Below the pieces are notes generated by a model. It worked only from the letters and a program-made list of their open reading frames with translations. It was not told the origin of the DNA and did not search any database. A stretch of 64,000 nt of DNA from a candidate division WOR-3 bacterium UBA2258 (lineage in GTDB: Bacteria > Hydrothermota > Tepidihabitantia > Tepidihabitantales > Tepidihabitantaceae). Both the position numbers and the translations under genes were made by a program. Shown one piece after another: positions 2,005-58,924 of the stretch. The stretch spans positions 3,624 to 67,623 of the forward strand of contig DDXO01000013.1 in NCBI GenBank assembly GCA_002347155.1, given 5' to 3'. Every line of letters starts with the position of its first letter. Within the stretch, counting starts at the first letter, position 1.

Positions 2005-3297
2005 CTAGCGCTGGACCACGAACTTCTGGGTCATGCTGAGGCCGTCTGCATCGACTTTCAGCACGTACACGCCCGACTTGGATAGGGGCACGAAGTTCAG
2101 GCCCCTGGCTGCGGTCTGCCTCGCCACAACTCTGCCGAGAGCGTCGGACACAAGCACGTTCGCCCTGGTCTGGGCAGTGAAGGAAATGCCGCGCCCAGAC
2201 GGATTGGAGAGGACACGGATACCCGGCCTGGCAATCGCCGGGACACTCCTCTCGTTTACACCCGGAATCAAGGGAATGCCGCCGTCGTAGGTTCTCAGGA
2301 TCGTGCCATCCGACCCAACGGCGTAGCCCGTGTCGGGGCCGTTCGGAAAGCACAGGCCGTGCATCCTGGCGTTGAGTCCCGCGGGCACCGTCGTCGCCCA
2401 CACGTCGGTATCTGATACGGTTCGGCCGACGAAGCCCTCGGCTCCGCAGATGTACGCGACATCCGAGGTCGGCACGTCGACGCCGTAGAGAGCCGTGACG
2501 GTAGAACACCTCACGACCTGCCACACGGTGGCGCCGCCGTCGGCCGTAAACCGAACGACCCCACCGGTCGAGTCTATCCCGACCAGGTAGCCCCGGCTAG
2601 GGTCTTCGGGTGATAACGACACGGCCAGGATGTCGCCATTGGTCTGGGCACCTTGATAGTACTGGATGCTGTCGAATCCGTCCGTGGACCCGATGATGAA
2701 GTTCGAGTAGCCGAAGACTACGCCGATGGTGTCATTGGCGAACTCGGCCCCGAACGACGTATTCCCCGGGTTGCCGACCGGAATCGTTCTCCAGTTGCCA
2801 CCGCCGTCGGTGGTCTTCATCAATCTCGCGCCTCCGCCCTGCGGAGTCACCGCTATGTAGCCGGCCTCGCCGTTCTCCGGGAACTGGACAGTGTTCAACC
2901 GCTGCATTCCGGGAACGCCCTTCGAATTCCAGTTTGCCCCGCCATCCGTCGTCCTGAGCAGCGACCCGCCGCTGACGGCGTACCCGGTCGAGTCGTTCGT
3001 GAAGTAGACATCGTAGACCCCGTTCAACATACCGGTACTCTCCGGCAGCCAGGTATTGCCGCCGTCAGTTGTCTTGAGGATGGTGCCAAAGCCGGTCGTG
3101 TCAGTACCGACCGCATACCCGACCTGCGTGCCGGTCGGGAAGTGAACGGCCAGCAACTCGGCTCGCGTACCCGATATGAGTTGTTCCCAGGCCCCGAGGG
3201 CCAACGAAGTCAATAGCAGCAGCCCACTCATCACGGCGGAGCTGCTCCTGATGCCGGGTCTGACTGCTGCTCCTCCTCTACCCCGGCACAGGATCAC
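2005..3297 (-). CDS. Secreted BNR/Asp-box repeat beta-propeller protein (Ycf48-like) with a T9SS C-terminal sorting domain; paralog 1 of 4
   Basis: Repeated TTDGGxTW / TDGGxNW Asp-box motifs. C-terminus ...RGISFTAQTRANVLVSDALGRVVARQTAARGLNFVPLSKSGVYVLKVDADGLSMTQKFVVQR matches Por/T9SS CTD architecture. N-terminal hydrophobic signal peptide. Confidence 0.7.
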   Translation of the reverse strand: MILCRGRGGAAVRPGIRSSSAVMSGLLLLTSLALGAWEQLISGTRAELLAVHFPTGTQVGYAVGTDTTGFGTILKTTDGGNTWLPESTGMLNGVYDVYFTNDSTGYAVSGGSLLRTTDGGANWNSKGVPGMQRLNTVQFPENGEAGYIAVTPQGGGARLMKTTDGGGNWRTIPVGNPGNTSFGAEFANDTIGVVFGYSNFIIGSTDGFDSIQYYQGAQTNGDILAVSLSPEDPSRGYLVGIDSTGGVVRFTADGGATVWQVVRCSTVTALYGVDVPTSDVAYICGAEGFVGRTVSDTDVWATTVPAGLNARMHGLCFPNGPDTGYAVGSDGTILRTYDGGIPLIPGVNERSVPAIARPGIRVLSNPSGRGISFTAQTRANVLVSDALGRVVARQTAARGLNFVPLSKSGVYVLKVDADGLSMTQKFVVQR

Positions 3298-3327
3298 GCT
3301 CGATTCGCACCGTCCGCCTTCTCCCCT

Positions 3328-4560
3328 TCAGCGCTCGACCACGAGCTTCTGCGTGGTGGAGAAGCCGTCAGCCTTGACCTTCAGCACGTAGACGCCCGCT
3401 TTGGACAATGGCACGAAGTTCAGGCCCCTGGCTGCGGTCTGCCGAGCCACGACTCGGCCGAGGGCGTCGTACACGACGGCTTCCGCCTCGGCATCGGCGC
3501 TGAAGGCGATGCCGCGACGAGACGGGTTGTCGAGAACCCGGATTGAGACGTGCGCAGTCAGCGGGTCCTTCGGCTCGGCCACAGACATGGGGTTGCCGCC
3601 ATCATAGGTCCTCAGGATGACCCCGCCCGCGCCAACTGCAAACCCGGTGTCGGCCCCGGCGGGAAAGCAGACCCCGTGCAGGTCGGCGTGGCCGTCGTAC
3701 ATTGTCTGCTGAAAATGGATCGGGACACGCGACCTGGCGATGAAACCATCACTGCCGCATGCGTACGCGACGTTCGTTGTGGCCACGTCGATACCGTACA
3801 CGGCCCCCGGAACAGGCTCACAAGTCACGCTGTCCCACGGGTATTCGCCACCGGTTGCAGTGTATCGGACGACGCCGTGGATTGAGTCATTTCCGATGAG
3901 ATAGCCTGTGTTCGGGTCTGAACCTGAGAACGCTGCGGCAATAAGATCGGCATCCGTCTGAGCGTCACCATGCCAGGAACTGCCAGGACTGACCACAATG
4001 ACAAGCCCCCCGTGCCCGAGGACCACGCCCGTGCTGTCGGTCGCGAAGGCGCAGCTTGTCGAATGGTCGTGAATACCGCCTGCTTGTACAAGAACCCAAA
4101 CGGTCCCGCCATCAGTCGTCTTGAGCACCATCGCGGGGAACGTGTCGGAGTCGACGCCGATGAAACCGGTATAGCCGTTCGAGGGAAACGACACGTAGGT
4201 GAGCGTGTTGGAGACGCCGACCGTCACGGAAGTCCAGGTAGCGCCGCCATCTGTGGTTCTGATAGCAGACCCAGCCTCGCCGACCGCATACCCGGTGTCG
4301 TTGCTCTTGAAGTGGACTGAGTTGAGCGCTCCACTGACTCCGGCGGCTTGCTGCACCCAGGTGTCGCCGCCGTCAGTGGTCTTCAAGATGGCGCCGGAAT
4401 CGCCTACTGCGTAACCGACATGAGTACCTTCAGGAAAGTGAACCGCATACAGGTCAGCGGCTGTCCCCGAGTTCAACTCTGTCCAGCCCGCCGCAAGCAA
4501 CGAACCGAGCAGCGACAGGCTGCATGCCGCTACGGCGTTGCGCTTCAAACCGTACCTCAC
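3328..4560 (-). CDS. Secreted BNR/Asp-box repeat protein with T9SS CTD; paralog 2
   Basis: Same architecture and CTD (…VYVLKVKADGFSTTQKLVVER). Asp-box motifs LKTTDGGDTW and IRTTDGGATW. Confidence 0.7.
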   Translation of the reverse strand: MRYGLKRNAVAACSLSLLGSLLAAGWTELNSGTAADLYAVHFPEGTHVGYAVGDSGAILKTTDGGDTWVQQAAGVSGALNSVHFKSNDTGYAVGEAGSAIRTTDGGATWTSVTVGVSNTLTYVSFPSNGYTGFIGVDSDTFPAMVLKTTDGGTVWVLVQAGGIHDHSTSCAFATDSTGVVLGHGGLVIVVSPGSSWHGDAQTDADLIAAAFSGSDPNTGYLIGNDSIHGVVRYTATGGEYPWDSVTCEPVPGAVYGIDVATTNVAYACGSDGFIARSRVPIHFQQTMYDGHADLHGVCFPAGADTGFAVGAGGVILRTYDGGNPMSVAEPKDPLTAHVSIRVLDNPSRRGIAFSADAEAEAVVYDALGRVVARQTAARGLNFVPLSKAGVYVLKVKADGFSTTQKLVVER

Positions 4561-4617
4561 ACTTCCTCCTTCGTCACTGTCGTGAACTGCACTTCCGTGT
4601 CCATTGGCATCTCCGCT

Positions 4618-5895
4618 CTAGCGCTGGACCACGAACTTCTGCGTCGCCGTAGAGCCTGCCGATATCATCTTCATCACGTAGACGCCCGACTTGGATAGCG
4701 GCAGGAAGTTCAGGCCCCTGGCTGCGGTCTGCTTCACAACGACTCGGCCGAGGGCGTCGTACACAGCCACGCCCGCCTCCGCGTTAGAGTTGAAGGTGAT
4801 GCCAAACCGCAGAGGATTGGACAGGACACGAATCCCTGCACGGCCCATCGCTACGTCATCCGCCTCGGCAACCCAATGAACAAGACCACCTCTGTCATTG
4901 GTCCTCAGGATTGCCCCACCGGAGCCGACCGCGTAGCCTGTGTCGACGCCGTTTGGAAAGTGTATGCCGGACAAGGAAGCTCTCAGGCCGCCCGGCACCA
5001 ACGTCCTGTAGACGTAGGTCGGCGTCACCGTTATGCCGATCGTCGGCTTATCCGCGGAGTCCCCGACGAAGTACGCAATCTCGGTACCGGGCATGTCGAG
5101 TCCGCGATAGGCGAACACCGTCCAGCACCGGACCGAGTCCCACGGCGTCGCGCCGAAGTCATCGGTGTACCTGATGATCCCGCGTGCCGAGTCATATCCG
5201 ACCAGATAGCCCCTGTCCGGGTCATCGGGGGCGAACGCAACGGCAACCAGGTCTGCATTAGTCCGTGCGCCTTGAAACTCTGTGTTGTCGAACCCGTCTC
5301 TGGTCGCGAGCACGAGGCCGTCGTCGCCTACCGCCACACCCATGCTGTCGTTCGCCATGCTCCCGCCTCGAGTCACACTGGCCGGCCCACCGACGTCGAT
5401 GGCAGTCCAACTGCTTCCGCCGTCGATGGTCTTGAGCACCTTGCTCGGCGGGTTCCGTGGATGGGTGAAGATGTAGCCGACCTTGCCGTTCTCAGGGAAC
5501 TGGATGCAGGTCAAGGCTTCGCTGCTGGGGACCGTGACCGACTTCCAGGTTGCTCCACCATCGAACGTCTGGACCGCGGCCCCTGCGGACCCGACCGCGA
5601 AGCCGGTATCGTTGTCCTTGAAGTAGACGGAATTGAGCGGTCTCGCCATGCCCGAGGGCTGCCGCACCCAGGTGCTGCCGCCGTCCGTGGTTTTAATGAC
5701 CAGCCCGACTTCGCCACCCAGGCTGTCCATATCGGCGCCGACCACATACCCGACCTGTGTCCCCTCGGGGAAGTGAACCGAGTAGAGCGGCCCGGTCACA
5801 CCCGAATTGAGTTGGTACCAGGCCGCGAAGGCCGGAACGGCCATCAGCAGTATACCGGCCATTATTGCCAAACCGCATCTGCAATCAGACTTCAC
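4618..5895 (-). CDS. Secreted BNR/Asp-box repeat protein with T9SS CTD; paralog 3
   Basis: Asp-box motifs IKTTDGGSTW and TFDGGATW. CTD …VYVMKMISAGSTATQKFVVQR. Highly similar to paralog 4. Confidence 0.7.
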   Translation of the reverse strand: MKSDCRCGLAIMAGILLMAVPAFAAWYQLNSGVTGPLYSVHFPEGTQVGYVVGADMDSLGGEVGLVIKTTDGGSTWVRQPSGMARPLNSVYFKDNDTGFAVGSAGAAVQTFDGGATWKSVTVPSSEALTCIQFPENGKVGYIFTHPRNPPSKVLKTIDGGSSWTAIDVGGPASVTRGGSMANDSMGVAVGDDGLVLATRDGFDNTEFQGARTNADLVAVAFAPDDPDRGYLVGYDSARGIIRYTDDFGATPWDSVRCWTVFAYRGLDMPGTEIAYFVGDSADKPTIGITVTPTYVYRTLVPGGLRASLSGIHFPNGVDTGYAVGSGGAILRTNDRGGLVHWVAEADDVAMGRAGIRVLSNPLRFGITFNSNAEAGVAVYDALGRVVVKQTAARGLNFLPLSKSGVYVMKMISAGSTATQKFVVQR

Positions 5896-5951
5896 TCTTC
5901 CTCCTCTATGTCTGCTGCCAACAACGCTCTTGTGCTGTTGTCTTCTCCTCT

Positions 5952-7220
5952 CTAACGCTGAACGACGAGCTTCTTCGTGGTGGCATTGCCATCACCATTG
6001 ACCTTCAACACGTAGACGCCCGCCTTGGATAGCGGCAGGAAGTTCATGCCCTTCGTTGCCCTCTGTCTCGCCACAACTCGGCTGAGAGCGTCGAACACGA
6101 GGACGTTAACCTCGGCGTCGGAGTCGAAGGCGATGCCGCGGCGAGATGGGTTGGACACGACCCGGATTCTTGTGCGGCTGACCGCCGGTCCTCTTTCCTC
6201 GCCCACGGCGAACCATGGCCCGGGCCAGTCGGCACGCAGAATCAGTCCGCCCGCGCCGACCGCGTAGCCAGTATCCATGCCGTGCGGGAAGCACACGCTG
6301 TGGAGCGCAGCCACTCCCCGCGGTGCCGGTGTCAGGAAGAAATCGTCGTCGGCGACCGAAATGAGAGCGCGTCCCTGGCCGAAGCTGTCCCCGCAGACGT
6401 ACGCAATGTGGGCGGCGTCCGTCATGTCGAGCCCATGGAAGGCCGTCGTTCGCCAGCACCTGACGCTGTCCCAAGGGGTCGTGCCACCGTCATCCGTGAA
6501 CCGGATGATTCCCTGTGACGAGTCATTGCCAATCAGGTAGGCCCTGCCCGGGTCTGTTGGCGAGAAGGCCACGGCCACGAGGTCAGCATCGGTCTGGGCG
6601 TTCTGATAGTGGGTACTGGCTAGTCCGTCCGTAGTCCCAAGCACAAGGCCATCGTCACCGACAATGGCGCCGACGCTGTCGGTTGCGAAGCCGCCCCCGC
6701 GAGTCACATCCGACGGTCCGCCGACGCTGATGGCGGTCCAATTGTCGCCGCCGTCGATGGTCTTGAGCACCTTGCTCGGCGGATTCCGTGGATGTGCAAA
6801 GATGAAGCCGACCTTGCCGTTCTCAGGGAACTGGATGCCGGTCAGGTCTTCGTTGCTGGGCAGGGTGATCGACTTCCATGCTGCTCCGCCATCGAACGTC
6901 TGAATCGCGGCCCCCGCGGCCCCGACTGCGAAGCCGGTATCGTTACTCTTGAAGTAGACTGAATTGAGAGCTCCAGAGGTACCTGGGAATTGCGGCACCC
7001 ACGTGCTGCCGCCATCCGTGGTCTTGAGAACCAGCCCGACTTCACCACCCAGGCTGTCCATACCCGCACCGACCACATACCCTACCTGTATCCCCTCGGG
7101 GAAGTGAACCGAGTAGAGCGGCCCAGTCACCCCGGAATTGAGTTCGTACCACATCGCGAGGGCCGGCGAGCTGATTAGCAGGCAGCATATGACTGCTCCA
7201 GCGTACTTCGACACAAGCAC
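5952..7220 (-). CDS. Secreted BNR/Asp-box repeat protein with T9SS CTD; paralog 4
   Basis: Near-identical N-terminal half to paralog 3 (YELNSGVTGPLYSVHFPEG…LKTTDGGSTW). CTD …VYVLKVNGDGNATTKKLVVQR. Confidence 0.7.
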   Translation of the reverse strand: MLVSKYAGAVICCLLISSPALAMWYELNSGVTGPLYSVHFPEGIQVGYVVGAGMDSLGGEVGLVLKTTDGGSTWVPQFPGTSGALNSVYFKSNDTGFAVGAAGAAIQTFDGGAAWKSITLPSNEDLTGIQFPENGKVGFIFAHPRNPPSKVLKTIDGGDNWTAISVGGPSDVTRGGGFATDSVGAIVGDDGLVLGTTDGLASTHYQNAQTDADLVAVAFSPTDPGRAYLIGNDSSQGIIRFTDDGGTTPWDSVRCWRTTAFHGLDMTDAAHIAYVCGDSFGQGRALISVADDDFFLTPAPRGVAALHSVCFPHGMDTGYAVGAGGLILRADWPGPWFAVGEERGPAVSRTRIRVVSNPSRRGIAFDSDAEVNVLVFDALSRVVARQRATKGMNFLPLSKAGVYVLKVNGDGNATTKKLVVQR

Positions 7221-7487
7221 CTCCCTTTGGCTCGTCCACCCACATGGATCTCTGCGGAAGCCGCGTTCGGCCGTTCCGGCGGGCGGGCCGTTACATGTTA
7301 CCTAGCGACAATTCCCTGCTGTCCTGGCTCCATTATACTCCTTCCCCTCCATCACAGTCAAGTCCCGCAGCCGACACAGAAACAACCACAGAGAATACAG
7401 AGCGGGTGGAGACCCGGTTTTCGGGCTGACTCTCGTGACCTCGATACGCTCTGTGGTCATTATCGGATTCAGGAAGCGGGAGCCGGC

Positions 7488-7519
7488 TTGACATCGTAGA
7501 CCGGTCCGGCTACGATGTC
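7488..7519 (+). promoter_or_regulatory. Promoter of the TIR gene overlapped by a 30-bp palindrome (GACATCGTAG-ACCGGTCCGG-CTACGATGTC) that may be an operator
   Basis: -35 TTGACA (7488-7493), 17-bp spacer, -10 TACGAT (7511-7516). Perfect 10-bp inverted arms spanning both hexamers. Confidence 0.4.
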
Positions 7520-7650
7520 ACCGAATGGGGCGGCCCGAGCCGAAGCCAGTCGGTAGACGGCCATCAGCGGGACCGTGAGTTCCCGATTCGCCGGCCCGGG
7601 GCCCAAGCAGACCCCATGCGGCTGATTGGCGCCTTTGCAGGGAGGCCCTA

Positions 7651-8589
7651 GTGCTCGCCGACGTTCCGAATGTTATCCGGCCCAGAGGCATTCAGCCTCA
7701 CATCGTCATCGCTTATTCCTATGCCGACAATGAGTTTGCCCACCGGCTCGCCGGCGCGTTACGGCGCGAGGATATCAGCCCGTGGGTGGACGAGGTGGAT
7801 ATGTCGGTCGGCGTGATTCTGGTCAACCGGCTGACCAACTCGCTCCGCCCGGTGGATTTCGTCATCCCGCTCATCTCCACCGCCTCGCTGGCTGCGCGCT
7901 GGGTACAGCAGGACCTCAGGGTGGTCACGACGCGCGACTTCAAAGGCCGCCGCGTCCGGGTGCTGCCCGCCAGGGTTGATGGCTCGGCGCTGCCGGACTA
8001 TCTCCGGTCCCAGTCTTACATTGACTTTCACGCCAACGGCTGGAAAAGGGCCTTTGAAGACCTGAAGGTCATCGTGAGGCCCGGCGGCGTTCCCCAACCG
8101 ACGGTACGGCCTGAGCCCGAGTTCGAACTGCCCCGCCCGATTCGCCGGCCGCCGCCCGAGAAGAAGCCGGAGGGGAAGCTGGTCTTTGTCTCCTATGACT
8201 ATGAGAACGACGGCTACTACAAGGACGTTCTGCTGACCTGGACCACGAGCCCGGACTTTCCCCGGCTCAGCATGAACGACCAGCCTGTGAACTACCCGGT
8301 GGACAGCGACGACGCGGAACCGCTCAAGCACGTCGTTTACGGCAAGATAAAGGCGGCGACCGCGTTCCTCTGTGTGGTCGGCAAGAAGACGAGCATGAGC
8401 GACTGGGTGAACTGGGAAGTGAAGACCGCCATCGAACTCGACAAGCGGATGGTCGTCGCAAGGACAGACCGGGACTGCATGGTGCCGGACGCCCTGTCCG
8501 AAGTCGGTCCGACCTGCGCGTTGTCCTTTACCTTCGAGGGTATCAGGCGCGCCGTGGACGAGGCCTACGGTATCGTAGCTCAAGAATAG
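7651..8589 (+). CDS. Stand-alone double-TIR protein: N-terminal TIR (TIR_2-like) fused to a C-terminal ThsB-like TIR (DUF1863 / MTH538-like)
   Basis: GTG start preceded by GGAGG. N-terminal domain HIVIAYSYADNEFAHRLAGAL…ISTASLAARWVQQDL fits the TIR fold pattern. C-terminal domain KLVFVSYDYENDGYYKDVLL…FLCVVGKKTSMSDWVNWEVKTAIELDKRMVV fits the DUF1863 pattern (FhSY…, WVnWEi). Confidence 0.65.
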   Translation: MLADVPNVIRPRGIQPHIVIAYSYADNEFAHRLAGALRREDISPWVDEVDMSVGVILVNRLTNSLRPVDFVIPLISTASLAARWVQQDLRVVTTRDFKGRRVRVLPARVDGSALPDYLRSQSYIDFHANGWKRAFEDLKVIVRPGGVPQPTVRPEPEFELPRPIRRPPPEKKPEGKLVFVSYDYENDGYYKDVLLTWTTSPDFPRLSMNDQPVNYPVDSDDAEPLKHVVYGKIKAATAFLCVVGKKTSMSDWVNWEVKTAIELDKRMVVARTDRDCMVPDALSEVGPTCALSFTFEGIRRAVDEAYGIVAQE

Positions 8590-8675
8590 CCGTCGCGGGC
8601 CGTCCCTCGTCTCGGACCGTCCTCGGTCCTCGGTCTTCCGTCTTCAGTCCTCGGTCTTCGGTCCTTCCTGACGCA

Positions 8676-8707
8676 GCGGGCGGCGCCTCTCGGCGTCGCC
8701 CGCACCC
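8676..8707. terminator. GC-rich hairpin (GCGGGCGGCGCC-TCTC-GGCGTCGCCCGC) between the TIR gene and the ssrA 3' end; likely a bidirectional terminator
   Basis: Imperfect 12-bp inverted repeat immediately downstream of both convergent genes. Confidence 0.3.
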
Positions 8708-8711
8708 GCAA

Positions 8712-9060
8712 TGGAGGCGGCGGGAATTGAACCCGCGTCCGGAGAGTTCGGTTCCAGCGACCTACATGGTTAGTCAGTCGATATATCTTGGCGCACCGTT
8801 AGCCGACCGACAGGCGCGGTGAACCCAGCCCCAGAGATTCTCGGGTTACGGCCCTGAGACACGACCGCATCCCACATCACCCTTTTATACCCTGACTCCG
8901 CGCCGGGTGAGTTCGCGGGTCAAGGGGCTCCCTTAGTTAGGCAGCCAGTGCGTAGCTGTTATTGGCAGCTGTGTTTCCCCGGTCGGGATTTACGAGGTAA
9001 CCAGGGAACCTCGCCATGCACTCTGGCCCCTCAGGCACTCCGTCGAAGCCAATCGCCCCC
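8712..9060 (-). ncRNA. ssrA: tmRNA (ssrA), about 349 nt, encoding tag peptide (A)ANNSYALAA
   Basis: Minus strand reads 5' GGGGGCGAUUGGCUUCGACGG… and ends …CGCGGGUUCAAUUCCCGCCGCCUCCA, giving a 7-bp acceptor stem and T-arm. Internal ORF GCU GCC AAU AAC AGC UAC GCA CUG GCU GCC UAA encodes AANNSYALAA. Confidence 0.85.
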
Positions 9061-9233
9061 GACGAACGTCTGACAAGCCTTACTGACTCCAGATTGTCGC
9101 CTTATTGTACACCGGAATCGGACGCGAGTCAACATAGAACCGCCAAGGTCAGAACCCGGATGCCTGAAAACCAGATACGTTCCTCCGACTGGAAACTGAC
9201 ACCTGGAAACTGGTAACTCACGCCCGGCGCGTT

Positions 9234-11051
9234 CTAGCCCGCGCCCGAGCTGCCGCCACCGCCACCACCGCCGCCGCCGCCGGAGAACCCTCCGCCCGAA
9301 GACGAACCCGTAGAGAAAGACGACATCATGCTGCTCATGTTGGAGGCAAAGGCGCCGAACCCACCCAGCCCCTCGCTCAGCGAGGCAAGCGAGCCGCCCG
9401 GCACACCGGATGCCCCGATGTACCAGACCGGCAGCACCAGGCCGGTTCCGCGCTGCTCCGCGAGTCTGGCGACGTGCTTGAGGAACTCGGTAGCCACGCC
9501 CAGGGCCACGGCGTAGACGTAGTACTCCTCCCAGATGGCCAGCAGGTTGACCGGCGCCTGCTCGATTGCCGAGAAGTCCTTCAGGAACTTGCGGAAGTTC
9601 CGCCAGCGCTTGTGTTCAAGGTAGGCAATCGGGTCCCAGCGAATGATGACGCGGCCGGTCAGGAAGTAGACCGCACCGCAGGCAACGGCGGCGAATACCG
9701 TGAGCGGAATCCGCGCGCCTGCGGACGACGGCTCAATCGCGGCCACGCCGCCGAAGAAGAGCCATGCGCCGGGGAGGAAGCAGAGCGCGGCGAGCCCGCA
9801 GTATGTTGAGTAGGCCCGGCGGCTGGCAGCCTCGGTGAACTCGACACCGAGTTGTGCCGGCCACCATCCTGCCCCGGCCGAGTATAGGCGCGAAATCATC
9901 TGCCTGACGCCGGTGGGATGGGTCCTGCCGTAGTTCTTTATCATCTCCTCGGTAAGGACGTTGCCGCCGCCGCCGAACATACCGAACAGGTATTCGACCG
10001 CCAGCTTGTCGAACCCAACCAGTGCTGCCGCCTTTCCGGGGTCGTCCAGCCGGAACTCGTACCTGGTCTTCCGTCCCTCTTTGACCTCGTGCACCGAGAC
10101 AGCTCCCTGCCGGGCCAGGCCGAGCAACGTGGCCATGAGACCGCGGAAGAACTCCTGGGTCATGCCGGACTTGTCCGGCTTCTGGTGCATGATGAAAGGC
10201 ACGACGAACGGCGGCGCTCTGCGGGGCGGCTCATGCTCGTAAATGGCTTCGTAGTCGAGTCTGGGCTCGCGGCCGTGCTTCCGGTAGAAGATTATGAGCA
10301 GCAGCACGGGCACGAGAATCAGGAGCAGGCCGAGCGGGACATAGAAGTGGCTGCGGAAGGTCGCGGCCATGAAGTTCTGCTTCTCCTCTGCCAGCATCTG
10401 CCCATACTTCTTCTGCGGGATCTGCGTGATATGCGGATACAAGTCGGGATTCGAGAGCGCCCGCACCTCGACGAACGCATTCCTCGGTATTCCCGCCTGC
10501 CGGATGTAGGCGGTATCGAACTCAGCGGCAAAGCTGAGTGTCCCGGGCCGCGCGGCCGCGTGGACATAGACCTTGAACAGGTCAGGTGAACGGCCGGGAA
10601 GTATGACCCGGACCACGGCACGTCCAATCGGCTCGTGCTCCTGCTCGACAACCTTCCAGTAGAACTCGGCCACGTCCTCGTAGCGCCGGACCGCGCCCAG
10701 GACCGTGTAGTCAATCAGGAACGTCCGTTGTTCGTCTTCGGCCGAGTACCCCCAGCGCAGATAGAACGAACGGTCGGTGTCAACGACCTCCGGCGCAAGG
10801 TCCTGCCACCCGCCGGCGGTCGCCATCGCCAGCCGGTTCAGCCTGATGTCGGCAGCGCCCTGCTTCCTGAGGTCAAGGTCGGCCCAGGAGAAGCGGCCGT
10901 CGAACTCGTAGGTCCGCTCCTGGACTATGCGTGCGCTGCCGTCAGCCCCCAGTATAACGTCGGTTGATATCTCCGGGTAGTAGTAGGACTTGGCCGCGGC
11001 GAGCAGCGGCAGCAGCAGGCACAAAGAGAGACGTCGTGCCATGATTGTCAT
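9234..11051 (-). CDS. DUF2207-family membrane protein with a glycine-rich C-terminal tail
   Basis: Signal peptide, central TM helices and a poly-Gly C-terminus (GGGFSGGGGGGGGGGSSGAG), characteristic of DUF2207. Confidence 0.55.
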   Translation of the reverse strand: MTIMARRLSLCLLLPLLAAAKSYYYPEISTDVILGADGSARIVQERTYEFDGRFSWADLDLRKQGAADIRLNRLAMATAGGWQDLAPEVVDTDRSFYLRWGYSAEDEQRTFLIDYTVLGAVRRYEDVAEFYWKVVEQEHEPIGRAVVRVILPGRSPDLFKVYVHAAARPGTLSFAAEFDTAYIRQAGIPRNAFVEVRALSNPDLYPHITQIPQKKYGQMLAEEKQNFMAATFRSHFYVPLGLLLILVPVLLLIIFYRKHGREPRLDYEAIYEHEPPRRAPPFVVPFIMHQKPDKSGMTQEFFRGLMATLLGLARQGAVSVHEVKEGRKTRYEFRLDDPGKAAALVGFDKLAVEYLFGMFGGGGNVLTEEMIKNYGRTHPTGVRQMISRLYSAGAGWWPAQLGVEFTEAASRRAYSTYCGLAALCFLPGAWLFFGGVAAIEPSSAGARIPLTVFAAVACGAVYFLTGRVIIRWDPIAYLEHKRWRNFRKFLKDFSAIEQAPVNLLAIWEEYYVYAVALGVATEFLKHVARLAEQRGTGLVLPVWYIGASGVPGGSLASLSEGLGGFGAFASNMSSMMSSFSTGSSSGGGFSGGGGGGGGGGSSGAG

Positions 11052-15914: not shown

Positions 15915-16070
15915 GTTGACTCCTTGTGGGTAAGAACTCGAAGCTACGTTATACGAAACCGGTTCGGTGTCAAGCCGAACACGGCCGGGAGGTAACCGGC
16001 AGCGTGCCCAAGGACAGCCTTCGCCCCAACGGCGAACCAGGTGCACGCGCGGAAGACGGGGACCCTCTGC

Positions 16071-16128
16071 GGAAAACGGGGACTGTACCGCGCCCGGTCC
16101 GACATTGGTGCTCCGCGGGACTGTCCCC
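16071..16128. repeat. Small MITE-like element with two palindromic GGGACNGTCCC boxes (GGAAAACGGGGACTGTACC…GGGACTGTCCCC)
   Basis: Second copy at 35319-35413, inside hypA, with the same outer CCGGAAAAC/GTTTTCCGG arms and inner boxes. Confidence 0.4.
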
Positions 16129-16137
16129 ATTCCCCGC

Positions 16138-16190
16138 GCGGTCACGGTCCGATGGGAGCCGCGACGTTGAAGACGTCGGTGCGGATGGCC
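16138..16190 (-). pseudogene. Duplicated 3' fragment of gene 31067..31441, encoding …[15 protein letters not shown] followed by a stop
   Basis: 52-bp near-identical match to 31064-31115. No upstream ORF, so it is a non-functional remnant. Confidence 0.45.
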
Positions 16191-17169
16191 CGCAGCGTAA
16201 GGCCTCGTCCAAGACGCTGGCCTCATGACCGGCTGCCCGACTCTGCATATTCTACGCAATCTGCGGACTCAGTCCTCGCTGAAATGCTCTCCCCAATGCA
16301 CCGTCCATCGCTCCTCTCATCGGACCTCTCATCGCATCCTCCATTCCATAACGCATCGTACCTCGGACTGGATTCCGCGCTGTACCTCAACCTCGACCTC
16401 AACCTGAATCCTTCACTGCTCCCGTCACTGGACCGCGCATCGCTTGCGAAACTGCTCGTAGCATTGCTCCCCGCATTGGACCCTTCACTGCTCCGCTCAT
16501 TGCACGTCTCAACGCACCGGTCATTGCTCGCTGGAATCGATGCTGCATTGCTCCCCGAAATGCAGCCTGGGAGGCGACCCCTACCCTACCTTCTCGTCCC
16601 GGACGCTCGCTCTGAACTCCCCGAGAACGCGTTAGTTACGCCCATTCCCGGCCCTTCGGAGAACCACGCCCTCGTGTATTGGCCGTCAAGGACGCACTCC
16701 CCTGTCCACCCTCCGCCCGTTCCGCGGCCGCATGTTCTGCTTTCGCAGTCATTTGCGCCAGCAACCAATGCACTCTGTTCGGCGGCCTCGCTCTCCGGAT
16801 GTACTCAAGGGGGCCCGCGTCTCGCGGTTCATGCCTCTATCGACCGTTTTCGTCGCCATGAGAAGGTCCTTTCATACTGCCTCTCACTAGTAGTTTGCCG
16901 ATCCGGCAAAAAGGTAAGCAGGGACAGCCACGGTACTTGACGACAGCGTCAAGGGCATCGGGCCGCAGACGCAGTCCGCGAGTTCCCAGTGACCAGTGTG
17001 CAGGAGAACCAAGACCACACCCAATTACGCCCGGCCGGCTGACAACTAACGGTTGAGGACTTCCTGCCACTTGACCACTTGATCCCTTGGTCTCTCGATC
17101 CCTCTCCCCTTCCATTTGACACCTCCGCCCGCGAGACGTTGAGTGTGACTGAGCACAAACGCCTATTGG

Positions 17170-35754: not shown

Positions 35755-38601
35755 CTATGATATCTCCTTGAGCATATTGGCCGCGACCGAGTCCGCCGGC
35801 ACGCGCTGCAGCCACATCTGCATCAGGCCCCGTGCCTTGGCCGTGTCGTGCAAGTCGTCGAGGTACAGCCGGTACAGCGCCAGGACTGCGTCTGACTTGT
35901 TCGGGCTGGCCGCGACTGCCGCGCGAAAGGCCGACTCTGCCCGGGCGAGCTCGCCCTTGCCCTGGAGGGCGTAGCCGCGCCGCAGCAGCAACTCGGGGTC
36001 CTGGAAGCCCAGCGCTTCGATGGAGTCGATGTATGCGACCGCCTTGTCGTACTGGCCGTTCAGCGTGGCAAACATAGAGGCGTGGTAGAAGAGCGGCACC
36101 TTTCTCTCCCGCTCGAGGTCGAAGCTGAGCGCCTTCTCGATGACCTCCTGCGCCTCGACGTTCTGGCCCGCTTTCTGGTACTCGCCGGCCAGGGCCAGGT
36201 AGCTGGCCGCGTAGTTGATGAGCAGCCCGCGCGTGTTCTCGTCCTTCTGCACGCGGCGGTCGAGCATCGAGTTCATGACGTACACGTCGTACAGCAGGTG
36301 CCGGGTCCGCGCGACGTCAACCTGGTCAGCACCCCGTTCCCGGACCACGCGGCTGACCAGACCTTCAAGCCGCACGTTCTGCACAACGTCCTCGAGGTTG
36401 TCGCGGGACACGGTGGTGGCGTAGTAGACCGGCGTCCGCGGCGTGTAGTTCGCGGTGAAGACCCGGGCCTGGTACTCCCCGGGCGTGCACGCGTAGTCAT
36501 CGGGCCACCGCAGCTTGATGCCCGCGCTGGTCGCGACGATGTCGCGCATCATGATGTCCTTGAGCAGGTAGGTACGGTTGTCTTTGCCGACAAACCCCTG
36601 GGGCAGCCTGTCGATTTCCGCCTCGGTGAACGAGATGGGCGCGCCCCAGCGTTTGAGCTGCTTGCAGTACCAGGGCGTGTTCAGCAGGGAGAGGTTGGCG
36701 ACCGCCACGTTCTTGCCGAACTCCGGGTCGAAGCCGGCCACACGCGACGGCACGGTCTGCATGAACCAGAGCGGGAAGGTATCGTTGTCGCCGTTGGTGA
36801 AAAGCACCGCGTGCTCGCCCGGACAGGATACCAGCATGTTGTAGCCGTACTCGGCCGGTATCCAGTCACCGCGCCGGGTCACCGACTGGTAGTTGAGGAG
36901 CATGGGCACGAACGCGAACGCGAGTGTCGCACCGGACGCGGCGTACACCGGCAGCTTCCGACCTCTCACCCAGTCGGCGAACCAGCGCAGGAAGGCATAG
37001 GCCCCGACGCCGACAAAGATGGTGTAGAAGACGAATGAGAACGCGAAGAAGTAGTCGCGTTCGCGTACCTCCAGGAACCCGAGCCTGCCCTGGGCCGGGT
37101 CGCCGCGCCGGGGGTCGGAAGGCGAGTACTTGAGGTTCAGGTAGGTCAGGAGCCCGACCGAAGCGACAAGGAACGCGACAAGGATGAGGACGAATGACCG
37201 TCGCTCCTTCTTGAACTGATGCCACATGCCCCAAAGCCCGAGGAGCGGCGGGATGAGCCCGAACAACGCCTGCCAGCCGACGTGCAGGAAGATGTCGAAG
37301 AACCTCGGGTTACCCCACTGCCAGAAGAAGTAGCGGACGTAGTATTTCACCTGCTCGTAGTAGGCCGTGAGCACGCTGAACCGCGGGTTCTGGTTCAGCC
37401 GCCATTCGTTCTCGGTCAGGAACTGGGTCTTGCGCGGCAGCAGCTTCATCGGGTCGTACTGCTCGCGCTTGAGCACGCTGACGAAATCGCGCCAGTTGGA
37501 GGGATTCACCTCGTTGATGCTCGGGTTCTGGTTGGCCCGGGTGTACATGATGAACTGAACCGTGCCGGCGAGCAGGACCAGACCCAGCATCAGCGCGACA
37601 TACCTGGGACGCAGCTTTCCCTGCCGGTGCAGCCAGTAGAGGTAGCCGCCGTACCCTGCGACCAGGAGCAGCAGCAGGACCGGCGACCGCACCCAGCGCT
37701 CGATGAACGCCACGGTCGGCGAGGCAAGAAAGAGGACCGTGTCGTCCATCACCGCGTTGCCTGCCGCGATATAGGCCACCACAAACACCAGGAAAATGAG
37801 CCCCAGGCCGTAGAACACCGTACGCGTGTGCGTGGAACGTTCCATCACCCTGATGCCATACCACGTCGCCGCCAGCATCAGCGGCACGGCGATGAAGGTG
37901 CCGAGGGAGAGACCCAGTTCCGCTATCGTCAGGATGACGAGGTACCCGGCAATCAGCTCGAAGATGCGCAACTGGACGATTGCCTCGCGGTCAACCACCA
38001 GGGCGAAGAACAGCACCGCGAAAAGGGTGAGCATCGGTGTGAAGTGGATGCCGGTAGAAAGGAAAAGCAGGTAGATTGCCCCGAGTATCAGGCGGTTGTC
38101 ACCGCCGTTGCGCTCGAGCTGGTCGCGCCAGAGCAGGGCCATGTAGAGAACCGACAGGGCGACGACCACGCAGGGCCCATACACTTCGGCCTCGACCGAG
38201 TTGTCCCAGAACGAGAAGGCAAAGGCACAGGCCAGGGCACCGAACACGCCGGCCACGTGCGGCAGCCACCTGTCAAAGCGCCGCTCGGCGCGGGCATAGA
38301 GCCCGATGAGCTTGATGACCAGCAGGTAGATCATGCCGCAGGAGAAGGCGCCGAACAGCACCGGAATGAGGTTTATCCGGAACGCGTATTCGGGGCTCGT
38401 CGGCAGCATGGCGAAGATCCGCCCGATGGTTACGAAAAGCGGCGTGCCGGGTGGGTGGGGAACGCCCATGATGACGGCGGTCGCGATCAACTCGCCGCAG
38501 TCCCAGAACGCTGCCGTCGGGGCGACGGTGGCAAGGTAGGCGGCCAACACGACAGCAAACACCGCGGCAAACAGGATGATGCGTATTCTCCGGTCGTTCA
38601 T
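35755..38601 (-). CDS. Large polytopic membrane protein, DUF2723 (glycosyltransferase family 39/PMT-like), with C-terminal TPR repeats; paralog A
   Basis: 948 aa. DUF2723 signature AFWDCGELIATAVIMGVPHPPGTPLFV. At least 10 TM helices. C-terminal TPR region. Confidence 0.7.
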   Translation of the reverse strand: MNDRRIRIILFAAVFAVVLAAYLATVAPTAAFWDCGELIATAVIMGVPHPPGTPLFVTIGRIFAMLPTSPEYAFRINLIPVLFGAFSCGMIYLLVIKLIGLYARAERRFDRWLPHVAGVFGALACAFAFSFWDNSVEAEVYGPCVVVALSVLYMALLWRDQLERNGGDNRLILGAIYLLFLSTGIHFTPMLTLFAVLFFALVVDREAIVQLRIFELIAGYLVILTIAELGLSLGTFIAVPLMLAATWYGIRVMERSTHTRTVFYGLGLIFLVFVVAYIAAGNAVMDDTVLFLASPTVAFIERWVRSPVLLLLLVAGYGGYLYWLHRQGKLRPRYVALMLGLVLLAGTVQFIMYTRANQNPSINEVNPSNWRDFVSVLKREQYDPMKLLPRKTQFLTENEWRLNQNPRFSVLTAYYEQVKYYVRYFFWQWGNPRFFDIFLHVGWQALFGLIPPLLGLWGMWHQFKKERRSFVLILVAFLVASVGLLTYLNLKYSPSDPRRGDPAQGRLGFLEVRERDYFFAFSFVFYTIFVGVGAYAFLRWFADWVRGRKLPVYAASGATLAFAFVPMLLNYQSVTRRGDWIPAEYGYNMLVSCPGEHAVLFTNGDNDTFPLWFMQTVPSRVAGFDPEFGKNVAVANLSLLNTPWYCKQLKRWGAPISFTEAEIDRLPQGFVGKDNRTYLLKDIMMRDIVATSAGIKLRWPDDYACTPGEYQARVFTANYTPRTPVYYATTVSRDNLEDVVQNVRLEGLVSRVVRERGADQVDVARTRHLLYDVYVMNSMLDRRVQKDENTRGLLINYAASYLALAGEYQKAGQNVEAQEVIEKALSFDLERERKVPLFYHASMFATLNGQYDKAVAYIDSIEALGFQDPELLLRRGYALQGKGELARAESAFRAAVAASPNKSDAVLALYRLYLDDLHDTAKARGLMQMWLQRVPADSVAANMLKEIS

Positions 38602-38775
38602 CTGGTGGACCTCCGGTAGCGGAAGAGGTTCAAGGGTTCAGTAAGTCAGTGGTTCCGGTGCCGGGCGCCTCTGCCCGCGGCCCGATTTTCAGCACCATTC
38701 ATGCAGGCTGATATTATACCGGGAACTGAAGCGAGTCAAATCAGGCGCGCCCGGTACGCCGGGCACAGGCATCGG

Positions 38776-41622
38776 TCAGGAGAGCTGGCGAAGCTGGCTA
38801 GCAGCAGCCGAGTCCGACGGAACCCGTCGCAGCCACAGTTGGAGCATGGCCTTTGCCCGGGCCGTGTCGCGCAGCCTGTCGAGGTAGAGACGGACCAGCG
38901 CCTCCACGAACTCCCCGCGGCCCGGGTCCGCGTTCGCCGCCTCCAGGTAGGCCGACTCGGCCGCCCGGAATTCGCCCTTGCGCTCCAACGCGGCGCCGCG
39001 GCGCGCGACCAGGTCCGGCTGGTCGTACCCGAGGGCCCGCATGGTGTCCAGCGCCTCCAGAGCGCGGTCGTTGTCGCCGATCTGCAGCGCGTAGGTCGAG
39101 AGGTGATACAACAGCGTTATGCGGCGGTCTTTATTGAGCTCCAGCCTGCTGGCAAGGTCGAGAACGTGCTTGGCGTCGTGCGGCCGGTTCTGGCGTCGGT
39201 ACTCGTTCGCCATCGCCATGAACGTCGCTGCATAGGTGAGCAACAAACCCCTGGTGTTATCGTCTTTTTGGACGCGGGGGTCGAAGATCGAATTCATGAC
39301 GAACACGGAATCCACCAGATACCGGCTCCTCGCCAGGTCCACCTGCTCGGCACCGACGTCCGCTACGACGCGGTAGACCAGGCCTTCAAGCCGCAGGTGC
39401 GACCTCACGTCCTCGAGATTGCCCGGCGAGACCGTGCTCGCGAAGTAGACCGGGGTCCTGGGATGATAGCCTGAACCGAACACCTTGGCAGCGTACTCCT
39501 CCGGCGTCAAGCCGTAGTCATCCGGCCACTTGAGCCTGACCCCGCCCGCAGTCGCAACTATGTTGCGGACAATGATGTCCTCGAGCAGGAAAGTCCGGTT
39601 GTTCTTGCCCACGAAGCCGCGCGGCAGGCGCTCGATCTCTTGCTCGGTGAACGAGATGGGTGCACCCCACCGCTTGAGCTGCTTGACGTACCAGTTCGTG
39701 TTCAAGAGGGAGAGTATCCCGACCTTGACATTCTTGCCGAACTCCGGGTCAAAGCCGGCCACACGCGACGGCACGGTCTGCATGAACCAGAGCGGAAACG
39801 TATCGTTGTCGCCGTTCGTGAACACCACCGCATGGTCGCCCGGACATGACACCAGCATGTTGTGGCCGTACTCGGCCGCAATCCAATTGCCGCGACGCGT
39901 GACACTGGGGTAGTTCAGGAACATCGGCACGAAGGCGAACGCCAGCAGGCAGCCGGACAAAGCGTACGCCGGCGCCGGCCGGAACCGCAGCCGGTCGATT
40001 ACCGTGCGCAGGAATGCGTAAGCCCCGACACCGACGAAGATCGTGTAGAAGACGAACGAAAAGGCGTAGAAGTAGTCACGCTCGCGCACCTCGAGGTAGC
40101 CCAGCCTGCCCTGAGCCGGGTCGCCGCGCCTCGGGTCGGAAGGCGAGTACTTGAGGTTGAGGTACGTGATCAGGCCGACCGAGGCGACAAGGAACGCGAC
40201 GAGGATGAGGACGAATGACCGTCGCTCCTTCCTGAACTGATGCCACATGCCCCAAAGCCCGAGGAGCGGCGGAATGAGCCCGAGCAGCGCCTGCCAGCCG
40301 ACGTGCAGGAAGATGTCGAAGAACCGCTCGCTGCCCCATTGCCAGAAGAAATAGCGCAGGTAGAACTTCACCTGTTCGTAGTACGCAACCGCCAGACTGA
40401 ACCGCGGGTTCTGGTTCGTCCGCCAGTCGTTCTCGGTCAGGAACTGGGTTTTGCGCGGCAGGAGTTTCATCGGGTCGTACTGCTCGCGCTTGAGCACGCT
40501 GACGAAGTCGCGCCAGTTTGACGGGTCGGCCTCATTGATGCTCGGCGAATGGTGGGCGCGGATGAACATGATGAACTGCACGGTGCCGGCCAGGAGCACG
40601 AGCCCAAGCATCAGGCCGACGTACTTCGGGCTCAGTCGCTTCTGTCGATGCAGCCAGTACAGGTATCCGCCGTAACTGGCTACGAGCAGCACGAACAGCG
40701 CCGGCGAGTGCACCCAGCGCTCGATGAACGCCACCGTCGGCGAGGCGAGGAACAGCACGGTGTCGTCCATTATCCTGTTCCCGGCCGCCACATAGGCGAT
40801 GACGAAGACGAGGAAGAACAGCCCGAGGCCGTAGAACACCGACCGCGTGTGAGTCGAGCGCTCCATCACCCTGATTCCGTACCACGCCGCCGCCAGCATC
40901 AACGGCGCGGCGACGAACGTGCCGATGCCGAGGCCCAACTCGTTGACGGTCAGTATCGTCAGGTAGGCGGCCAGCAGCTCGAATATCCTGAGTTGCAGCA
41001 CCGAATCGCGGTCCACAACCAGAACGAAGACCAGCACCGCGAAAACGGTCATCATCGGCGTGAAGTGGATGCCGGTGGAGAGAAAGAGCAGGTACATCGC
41101 CGCGAGTATCAGCCGGTTGTCGGCTGCCCCTTGCCTGATGCGGTCCCGCCACAACAGGGCCATGTACAGAACCGAAAGGGCGACGACCACACAGGGCCCG
41201 TACACCTCAGCCTCGACCGAATTGTCCCAGAAGGAAAACGCAAAGGCGCAGGCCATGGCGCCAAAGACACCGGCAACGTGCGGGAGCCACTTGTCGTAGC
41301 GACGTTCGGCGCTGGCATAGAGCGAGATGAGTTTGACCACAAGCAGGTAGATGAGCCCGCACGAGAAGGCGCCGAAAAGCACCGGAATCAGACCGATCCG
41401 GAATGCGATCTCCCTGGCCAGCGGGAGCATGGCGAAAACACGGCCCAGGGTCACGAACAGCGGTGTGCCCGGCGGGTGCGGCACACCCATGATGTAGGAG
41501 GCGGCAATCAGCTCACCGCAGTCCCAGAATGCGGCGGTCGGCGCCGCGCTGTACAGGTACACCCCGGCCACGACGGCAAACACCGCCGCAAACACGATCA
41601 GCCTGGTCCTTAGCTGATTCAC
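38776..41622 (-). CDS. DUF2723/TPR membrane protein; paralog B (tandem duplicate)
   Basis: 948 aa, collinear and about 70% identical to paralog A. Confidence 0.7.
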   Translation of the reverse strand: MNQLRTRLIVFAAVFAVVAGVYLYSAAPTAAFWDCGELIAASYIMGVPHPPGTPLFVTLGRVFAMLPLAREIAFRIGLIPVLFGAFSCGLIYLLVVKLISLYASAERRYDKWLPHVAGVFGAMACAFAFSFWDNSVEAEVYGPCVVVALSVLYMALLWRDRIRQGAADNRLILAAMYLLFLSTGIHFTPMMTVFAVLVFVLVVDRDSVLQLRIFELLAAYLTILTVNELGLGIGTFVAAPLMLAAAWYGIRVMERSTHTRSVFYGLGLFFLVFVIAYVAAGNRIMDDTVLFLASPTVAFIERWVHSPALFVLLVASYGGYLYWLHRQKRLSPKYVGLMLGLVLLAGTVQFIMFIRAHHSPSINEADPSNWRDFVSVLKREQYDPMKLLPRKTQFLTENDWRTNQNPRFSLAVAYYEQVKFYLRYFFWQWGSERFFDIFLHVGWQALLGLIPPLLGLWGMWHQFRKERRSFVLILVAFLVASVGLITYLNLKYSPSDPRRGDPAQGRLGYLEVRERDYFYAFSFVFYTIFVGVGAYAFLRTVIDRLRFRPAPAYALSGCLLAFAFVPMFLNYPSVTRRGNWIAAEYGHNMLVSCPGDHAVVFTNGDNDTFPLWFMQTVPSRVAGFDPEFGKNVKVGILSLLNTNWYVKQLKRWGAPISFTEQEIERLPRGFVGKNNRTFLLEDIIVRNIVATAGGVRLKWPDDYGLTPEEYAAKVFGSGYHPRTPVYFASTVSPGNLEDVRSHLRLEGLVYRVVADVGAEQVDLARSRYLVDSVFVMNSIFDPRVQKDDNTRGLLLTYAATFMAMANEYRRQNRPHDAKHVLDLASRLELNKDRRITLLYHLSTYALQIGDNDRALEALDTMRALGYDQPDLVARRGAALERKGEFRAAESAYLEAANADPGRGEFVEALVRLYLDRLRDTARAKAMLQLWLRRVPSDSAAASQLRQLS

Positions 41623-57240: not shown

Positions 57241-57428
57241 TTACTCCCGTGCGTAGGATGCCATCCTGTCGCACTCGGCCTAGCTGCAATATGCAGCAGG
57301 CGTATAGATGATACCCCAAAAGGCCCTCGCGTCAAGATCAGGAGTGCCAGTTTCTATCGCGGCGATCACAGACGGCCGATTTGGAGTTGGCCTTCATCGA
57401 GGACATGCTGGACGTACGGGCCAGGAAG

Positions 57429-58049: not shown

Positions 58050-58059
58050 GCCACATCCC

Positions 58060-58920: not shown

Positions 58921-58924
58921 GTGG

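Follow-up and report, generated by a model that had tools for sequence, protein, structure and literature searches.

A family of tandem-TIR proteins at recurrent core-gene sites in a candidate division WOR-3 sublineage and its possible origin from SLATT-type Thoeris

TIR proteins have a central place in the immunity of bacteria, plants, and animals. Bacterial TIRs of the ThsB type are understood to make signals and to depend on a separate effector, and the active sites of TIR enzymes that cleave nicotinamide adenine dinucleotide (NADases) form where two TIR domains pack head to tail. Here, we describe a protein family in which two different TIR domains are joined in one polypeptide, based on a gene (hereafter the double-TIR gene) in a 64,000-nucleotide stretch of DNA from the candidate division WOR-3 bacterium UBA2258 (assembly GCA_002347155.1, contig DDXO01000013.1, positions 3,624–67,623; this whole stretch is referred to as the window). 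The host is uncultured and the analysis is wholly computational, which sets a practical limit to what follows.

Among described systems, type VII Thoeris, defined by a SLATT protein together with a TIR protein, is the closest to the C-terminal half of the double-TIR protein. Upon infection, the TIR of this system produces canonical cyclic ADP-ribose (cADPR), the effector being the SLATT protein ThsH; stand-alone TIR proteins were deliberately set aside in the same systematic screen of TIR signaling (bioRxiv 10.64898/2025.12.03.692087). Like the ThsB of type VII systems, the C-terminal domain of the double-TIR protein (C-domain) matches ThsB_TIR and the ThsB models of PADLOC and keeps the catalytic Glu, and it is 36–47% identical to proteins of 130 amino acids encoded directly after SLATT/DUF4231 genes. 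Unlike in type VII Thoeris, the ThsB-like domain is fused behind a TIR_2 domain, and neither SLATT nor another Thoeris effector is linked to it at the three genomic sites of the family. The suggested link to type VII is drawn from the arrangement of SLATT and TIR genes.

A second comparison is with bacterial TIR NADases encoded by single genes, which work with no partner effector. A precedent for single-gene defense by a TIR NADase is SpbK of B. subtilis (PMC12847820). The double-TIR protein would resemble SpbK, AbTir (PDB 7uwg), and BtTir (7uxr) in this respect; its N-terminal domain (N-domain) aligns with BtTir and AbTIR over the catalytic helix and matches them structurally. In those single-gene NADases, one TIR domain is accompanied by a coiled coil or another non-TIR part, whereas two different TIR domains are present here, and the N-domain of the window copy has an Asp in place of the catalytic Glu. 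Two candidate systems in PADLOC are also similar: residues 20–106 of the N-domain match the single-gene PDC-S66 (5.5e-09), whereas PDC-M50B is matched by the C-domain (1.2e-06) and by the SLATT-linked stand-alone relatives of this domain. However, both matches of the double-TIR protein are partial and cover one domain each, and neither candidate describes the fusion. Finally, a TIR_2-type domain is shared with the TIR-SAVED effector of the type III cyclic-oligonucleotide-based antiphage signaling system (CBASS), and the PADLOC model SAVED_TIR weakly matches residues 18–87; unlike TIR-SAVED, the double-TIR protein has no SAVED domain, and its gene has no adjacent CD-NTase, HORMA, or TRIP13 gene.

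The double-TIR open reading frame (ORF) encodes 312 amino acids from a GTG start, with a GGGAGG motif 5 nt upstream. Its parts are as follows.

7651..8589, strand +: double-TIR coding sequence (domain profiles; ratio of nonsynonymous to synonymous substitution rates, dN/dS, 0.12–0.27 between orthologs)
7702..8064, strand +: N-terminal TIR_2 domain, residues 18–138 (Pfam)
8086..8169, strand +: Pro-rich disordered linker, residues 146–173 (predicted local distance difference test, pLDDT, <50)
8176..8574, strand +: C-terminal ThsB-like TIR domain, residues 176–308 (Pfam and PADLOC)

Pfam family TIR_2 (PF13676) matched residues 18–138 over model positions 1–121 of 122 (E 4.5e-25, 89 bits vs. a cutoff of 28), and ThsB_TIR (PF08937, formerly DUF1863) matched residues 179–273 (E 9.8e-16, 58.4 bits vs. 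a cutoff of 21.2), both halves therefore lying above the curated cutoffs of the two profiles that the original prediction had named as a check. The ThsB models of PADLOC matched residues 177–302 (ThsB1, E 3.1e-12). Using an alignment of 41 family members as input, AlphaFold2 (AF2) modeled both TIR domains with confidence (pLDDT ~85–93, N-domain ~90) and the linker at 146–173 as disordered. Foldseek matches in PDB included a B. cereus TIR (8fz9), ThsB (9b7d, 6lhy, 8wcf, and 8v6t), SPARTA TIR-APAZ, SARM1, BtTir (7uxr), AbTIR (8g83), and PdTIR (3h16), followed by weaker matches to folds of the nucleoside deoxyribosyltransferase type (NDT, DNPH1, and MilB). Thus, Pfam, PADLOC, AF2, and Foldseek agree with the earlier proposal that one polypeptide carries a classical TIR domain and a ThsB/DUF1863-type domain, and the Pro-rich linker is disordered in the AF2 model. 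In the model, both halves are TIR folds with a flexible linker between them.

Mean pairwise identity among the 41 sequences was 64% in the C-domain, 55% in the N-domain, and 30% in the linker (residues 146–175). The dN/dS of 0.12–0.27 within close ortholog pairs indicates a functional gene under purifying selection; in the pair formed by the window and the relative L005 (loci of relatives are numbered with an L), the values for XseA and DnaN were 0.13 and 0.07, respectively.

To place this architecture, 5.8 billion proteins were searched, which yielded 80 relatives. The full-length ones have ~312 amino acids and the same two domains, and the 80 carry no source names other than "candidate division WOR-3" and "[bacterium]." When 1.84 billion cluster representatives were searched exhaustively with phmmer, one other full-length match emerged (P0182, 46% identity), and the remaining hits among the best 150 covered one domain each. 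Hence, the fusion of TIR_2 and ThsB-like domains is confined to this family. The double-TIR family is restricted to one WOR-3 sublineage. Literature searches for double or tandem TIR proteins in bacteria and for WOR-3 TIR proteins gave no description of it. Similarity searches, including the best 150 phmmer hits, found no close relatives of the N-domain outside the family, and no other TIR gene of the window was related to the double-TIR gene by tblastn. Single metagenome-assembled genomes carry two copies of the family, and 2–3 double-TIR paralogs per genome occupy three recurrent chromosomal sites.

In some genomes, a stand-alone gene encoding a TIR_2 domain only (~170 amino acids, 52–56% identical to the N-domain) is located directly upstream of the double-TIR gene. 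No such gene is present in the window.

L006 807-1274, L007 511-978, L032 462-917, and L100 7864-8400, strand -: extra TIR_2-only gene, ~170 aa

Relatives of the C-domain (residues 176–305) that stand alone are proteins of ~130 amino acids with 36–47% identity, found in Oceanobacter, Colwellia, Rhodopila, an acidobacterium, and many metagenome contigs. In 17 of 20 such loci, the preceding gene encodes a SLATT/DUF4231 protein with two transmembrane segments, and in several loci the gene that follows the ThsB-like TIR encodes TIR_2-DnaJ_C, TIR_2-TPR-S, or TPR-S. Three multi-gene loci, from unrelated bacteria, appear from their gene content to be elaborated SLATT-type Thoeris operons with a sensor component.

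L018 9520-11489: operon of SLATT/DUF4231, ThsB-like TIR, and TIR_2-DnaJ_C genes
L020 9998-12355: ThsB-like TIR, a 194-aa gene, and TIR_2-TPR-S, SLATT not detected
L078 4085-6739: SLATT/DUF4231, ThsB-like TIR, and TPR-S, with a second ThsB-like gene also present

The third gene of these operons (TIR_2-TPR-S or TIR_2-DnaJ_C) was considered as a source of the N-domain and rejected, significant similarity not having been found.

The effectors of Thoeris were sought in the window and around its relatives. SIR2, SLOG, Macro, and SLATT domains were all absent from the 47 larger window ORFs put through Pfam, which comprised all large ORFs at 5.9–29.6 kb except 16041-16940 (three ORFs at 2005-5895 were assigned by similarity only); the original prediction was right in that no ThsA partner is nearby. 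Among the genes listed in the flanks of the double-TIR loci, no Thoeris effector gene (ThsA with SIR2-SLOG, Macro, SLATT, or similar) was called, and tblastn with SLATT proteins detected none in the window or in any double-TIR locus. Altogether, the more than 60 loci of the three genomic contexts yielded no partner effector.

One explanation is that the double-TIR protein is an orphan signal generator, in which the ThsB-like domain, and perhaps also the TIR_2 domain, would make a cADPR-type messenger for an effector encoded elsewhere, i.e., a split system. This would suit the SLATT-type operons in which the closest stand-alone relatives of the C-domain are found, the canonical cADPR made on infection by comparable SLATT-associated TIRs (bioRxiv 10.64898/2025.12.03.692087), and the invariance of the C-domain residue E256 described below, and the extra TIR_2-only gene beside the double-TIR gene in some genomes recalls loci with multiple ThsB genes. 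However, across the more than 60 loci the three sites have no linked candidate for a receptor or effector, none is among the 47 scanned ORFs of the window, and the sole signal-binding effector in the window is the SAVED protein of a complete CBASS which has its own CD-NTase. SAVED domains bind cyclic oligonucleotides, not cADPR isomers. We regard a split system as a possible but rather unlikely arrangement.

The catalytic residues differ between the two domains. By phmmer alignment, the catalytic Glu of BtTir and AbTIR (W-T-x-Y-E-L) corresponds to D88 of the N-domain (W84-V-Q-Q-D88-L). Among the 41 family sequences, W84 is invariant, and position 88 is Glu in 25, Asp in 15, and Gly in one. In the C-domain, W252, W255, and E256 are invariant in all 41 sequences, and E256 is, by alignment, the counterpart of the Glu in the B. 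cereus TIR 8fz9; the C-terminal tail T288–G307 also has ten invariant positions (T.A.SFT...I..A..EA.G). Thus, the catalytic Glu that had been proposed as a check for each TIR is present in the C-domain of every sequence, and the N-domain of the window copy has an acidic residue at this position, which is Asp rather than Glu.

The genomic context of the family was examined at more than 60 loci, which fall into three sites. In the window, the neighbor is ssrA, and the features on this side of the gene are also given.

Site ssrA: double-TIR gene convergent with ssrA, then DUF2207, a hypothetical gene, dnaN, xseBA, and hbd
Site lptE: double-TIR gene immediately 5' of lptE, a trmA-like methyltransferase gene, and an amidohydrolase gene (more than 30 loci)
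Site gyrA: double-TIR gene beside an Exo_endo_phos gene and two hypothetical genes near gyrA (L003, L009, L017, and L043)
8712..9060, strand -: tmRNA (ssrA), convergent neighbor (ARAGORN and Rfam, 168 bits)
8676..8703, no strand: GC-rich hairpin between the stop codon and the ssrA 3' end (read from the sequence)

As had been noted earlier, the gene lies 3' of ssrA; the two are convergent, ssrA lies 122 nt past the double-TIR stop codon, and the arrangement is conserved in orthologs. It was found in L001, L005, L006, L008, L024, L026, L028, L029, L032, L033, L035, L038, L039, and L100 as well as in the window, and it holds for every copy of 55–100% identity whose contig is long enough. The hairpin at 8676-8703 is probably a two-way terminator. 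The 3' untranslated region before it (8590-8675, strand +) is pyrimidine-rich with imperfect repeats (TCCTCGG/TCTTCGG units), and a similar low-complexity stretch occurs in L024. On the other side, the flank upstream of the double-TIR gene varies between genomes. In the window this variable flank is filled by four tandem paralogs (2005-7220, strand -) of ~410–430 amino acids with 48–65% mutual identity; the one of them that was scanned (5952-7220) has BNR/Ycf48-like repeats and a C-terminal sorting domain of the type IX secretion system.

The occupancy of the ssrA site was assessed at loci sampled without bias through the neighboring DUF2207 protein. The site is occupied in L100 and empty in L101 and L102, where xseA-xseB-dnaN, the hypothetical gene, DUF2207, and ssrA are followed directly by Peptidase_M23. 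In L098, a more distant WOR-3 locus, the family is absent at both ssrA and lptE, and lptE and dnaN are adjacent. On neither of the two grounds given with the original prediction for discarding it does the gene fail: both halves match the TIR profiles and an acidic residue is kept at the catalytic position, and L101, L102, and L098 provide empty sites, so that the double-TIR orthologs are fixed in position but not universal. The L098 contig (1-7275) contains the lptE-trmA block and the dnaN-DUF2207-ssrA block as adjacent, divergent units. Judging from this layout, the two main insertion sites would flank one core block of 4 kb, and the adjacency may be related to a rearrangement in the family-carrying genomes.

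A closer comparison was possible between the occupied site of L024 and the empty site of L101, which are collinear with 77–88% DNA identity except for the cassette. A segment of 1,207 bp in L024 (3601-4807), containing promoter, leader, ORF, and 3' untranslated region, replaces 68 bp in L101 (reverse complement 3372-3439), and its right edge lies just before the homolog of the ssrA terminator hairpin. No target-site duplication was present at the cassette edges in this pair. The empty site in a close relative means that the double-TIR gene is dispensable, and the gene moves or is lost as a discrete 1.2-kb unit.

Divergence of the double-TIR gene is uncoupled from that of the flanking core genes. 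Identity to the window is 86% for the double-TIR protein, 84% for XseA, and 95% for DnaN in L005; the corresponding values are 58%, 83%, and 93% in L001, and 55% (double-TIR) and 92% (DnaN) in L024. Strictly vertical inheritance at each site was rejected, as the L024 copy, although located at ssrA, groups with lptE-site paralogs in a neighbor-joining tree and shares their leader type. Because this copy is lptE-like in both respects, cassettes may have been exchanged or re-inserted between sites.

The 3' ends of ssrA genes are classic integration sites, and the original prediction, by placing the gene directly 3' of ssrA with a palindrome in its promoter, implied that it might be carried by an integrative island that targets ssrA and might be kept silent by a dimeric regulator sitting on the palindrome. 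The upstream flank indeed differs between genomes, and the palindrome overlaps both the -35 and -10 elements. However, no integrase is among the neighbors listed, the window has no second copy of the 25-nt 3' end of ssrA even with 3 mismatches allowed, and there is no shift in GC content. Moreover, the family is also found at the lptE and gyrA sites with no tRNA or tmRNA gene nearby, the cassette edges have no target-site duplication, and the palindrome is not conserved. This explanation is largely refuted, and we consider it very improbable.

Our preferred reading, which we hold tentatively, is that the double-TIR protein is a self-contained, effector-less tandem-TIR NADase of the immune or abortive-infection type, formed by fusion of a SLATT-type ThsB with a second TIR; its domain architecture, catalytic residues, synteny, distribution, and empty site and the conservation of its leader are shown by the data above and below, and its enzyme activity, trigger, oligomerization, and the regulatory role of its leader are what we infer here. 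The C-domain would have descended from the ThsB of a SLATT-type (type VII-like) Thoeris system, and the membrane effector would have been lost when the ThsB-like domain was fused to the second TIR. The resulting cytoplasmic protein would cleave NAD+ without a dedicated effector gene. Since NADase sites form across two head-to-tail TIRs, the tandem pair would supply both halves of the TIR–TIR interface, with the ThsB-like domain as the main catalytic unit and the N-terminal TIR as a partner or regulatory unit. A trigger, e.g., a phage protein, would induce assembly and then NAD+ depletion. Transcription would start from a strong promoter of constitutive type. Restraint would probably be post-transcriptional and come not from the palindrome, which is not conserved, but from the fold of the conserved leader, partial pairing of the Shine-Dalgarno sequence, and the weakness of GTG and TTG as start codons.

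Several observations weigh against this tandem-TIR NADase. The gene does not differ from its flanks in GC content, i.e., its composition is host-like, and it lies outside any defense island, its neighbors being secreted BNR proteins, ssrA, DUF2207, and dnaN. The replacement of Glu by D88 may render the N-terminal TIR of the window genome inactive. The predicted template modeling score of the AF2 model is 0.46, which gives no confidence to the interdomain packing, and the intramolecular pseudo-dimer is a hypothesis. Gene-wide positive selection is absent by dN/dS. In addition, a domesticated role in physiology could likewise account for the three stable core-gene sites and for the presence of several paralogs in a genome.

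Along the lines of the last point, the protein might have been domesticated as an enzyme with no immune role, serving NAD or nucleotide metabolism or stress signaling and specific to this WOR-3 lineage. TIR, ThsB, and nucleoside 2-deoxyribosyltransferase folds are related, and NDT, DNPH1, and MilB are among the Foldseek matches. Fixed positions beside core genes, host-like composition, several paralogs per genome, purifying selection, and housekeeping-type consensus promoters would all suit such an enzyme, whose structured leader could sense a metabolite. On the other hand, the best profile and structure matches are to TIR and ThsB rather than to NDT or DNPH1, the gene is missing in a close collinear relative and in a distant WOR-3 genome with the same synteny, and its divergence is uncoupled from that of the flanking genes. 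A domesticated enzyme is unlikely in our judgment.

An elaborate variant would be a one-polypeptide Thoeris, in which one TIR would sense infection and make a cADPR-type signal and the other would be an NAD+-depleting or signal-processing partner in place of SLATT. The leader would gate expression and may sense an NAD-derived ligand, and the cassette at three core sites would represent a lineage-wide, "hard-wired" immune set in WOR-3. This scenario seems to us decidedly improbable.

If the tandem-TIR NADase is as proposed, the family would be a natural case in which a ThsB-like domain parted from its SLATT effector, joined a second TIR, and was then long kept at fixed sites. Should the protein be active alone, it would show how a two-gene signaling system collapses into a single self-sufficient protein and would offer a simple tandem-TIR model for how TIR–TIR interfaces build an active site. 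The points of interest are the unique fusion, the loss of the effector, and the genomic behavior of several paralogs at fixed sites; the conserved leader is, in addition, a possible new cis-regulatory RNA.

The region upstream of the gene contains the following features.

7488..7516, strand +: sigma-70-type promoter, TTGACA-17 nt-TACGAT (consensus scan, 10/12 matches)
7489..7520, no strand: perfect inverted repeat TGACATCGTAG-N10-CTACGATGTCA over -35 and -10 (inverted-repeat search)
7522..7620, strand +: conserved 5' leader, long imperfect stem, helices 1–5 (alignment A2, RNAalifold)
7621..7646, strand +: small hairpin, helix 6, pairing part of the Shine-Dalgarno sequence GGGAGG at 7640-7645 (RNAalifold)
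7616..7651, strand +: 11-codon upstream ORF MRLIGAFAGRP-stop, whose TAG overlaps the GTG start (TAGTG)

The promoter is exactly the one that had been predicted, and each paralog examined has a TTGACA/TTGACT-N17-TAnnAT promoter at the corresponding upstream position. The palindrome is also real and overlaps the promoter, with arms of 11 bp (10 bp had been reported), TGACATCGTAG at 7489-7499 and CTACGATGTCA at 7510-7520, separated by a 10-nt spacer. It also yields a promoter-like site on the minus strand. Arms of at least 10 bp are expected by chance at 1.3 positions per 64 kb; the observed number was 13, spread over 8 distinct places. The repeat is not kept in orthologs, however: L005, the closest ortholog with upstream DNA, has arms of 8 bp only (TGACATCG/CGATGTCA), others have 5–6 bp or none, and in most of them all that remains is GACAT/ATGTC, made up of a portion of the -35 element and the bases right after the -10 element. 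Comparison of ~20 ortholog upstream regions thus led us to reject a conserved operator; the palindrome is specific to the window genome, and the tight repression through it that had been suggested has no comparative support.

In the main ssrA-site clade, conservation extends beyond the promoter to the leader. Over its ~125 nt (7522-7646), mean pairwise identity is 82%, compared with 62% at third positions of the coding sequence, and mean column identity in alignment A2 is 83%. RNAalifold proposed 39 pairs in the whole leader (31 in helices 1–5), with 5 compensatory pairs and 95.5% of cells paired; 3 of 500 shuffles reached the observed number of compensatory pairs, and slid controls were much lower. 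Helix 6 has no compensatory pairs and is weakly supported. Folded as a single sequence, the leader is no more stable than shuffles (z = 0.28), so that it is conservation and the five compensatory pairs which carry the case for its structure. Considering that the sequences are closely related, this amounts to moderate support, and the leader may be regarded as a candidate new cis-regulatory RNA. Within region 7100-9300, Rfam 15 at E <=1 gave matches to tmRNA models only, leaving the leader with no known RNA family. The covariance model R1 found it only upstream of double-TIR genes of the main ssrA-site clade. A leader common to all paralogs was rejected, the R1 element being absent from L001, L024, L028, L036, and the lptE and gyrA copies. 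A coding leader or an antisense ORF at 7518-7691 is disfavored by 1-nt indels in A2.

The upstream ORF is probably incidental, since its ATG is changed to ACG in L035 and L039, where the change compensates a stem pair. In several orthologs its stop codon overlaps a TTG start, or its frame is fused to that of the main ORF. The start codons ATG, GTG, and TTG alternate at the same aligned position among orthologs.

Another TIR-containing system of the window is a complete type III CBASS (52299-55994, strand -), ~44 kb from the double-TIR gene and within a defense cluster at 52299-60229 (strand -). It consists of a CD-NTase (PADLOC, 7e-112), a HORMA protein, a TRIP13-like AAA ATPase, and a TIR-SAVED effector (PADLOC SAVED_TIR, 3.7e-64).

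52299-53519, strand -: TIR-SAVED effector
53516-54451, strand -: TRIP13-like AAA
54448-54996, strand -: HORMA
54954-55994, strand -: CD-NTase
55945-57240, strand -: AIPR abortive-infection protein
58060-60229, strand -: TdeIII restriction enzyme and methylase

The TIR-SAVED protein therefore exists as originally reported (52299-53519, strand -), but the suggestion that the double-TIR protein acts in trans with it is unsupported, as it belongs to a complete operon 44 kb away. No CBASS genes were called within the 4–10 kb flanks of double-TIR contigs with listed genes, no CD-NTase was found adjoining any member of the family, and nothing links the window CBASS to the double-TIR gene.

Elsewhere in the window, two tandem paralogs of 948 amino acids (35755-41622, strand -) combine an N-terminal TMEM260-like O-mannosyltransferase domain with C-terminal TPR repeats. 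After this pair come cdaA (diadenylate cyclase), a pterin-binding gene of the folP type, and an aminotransferase gene.

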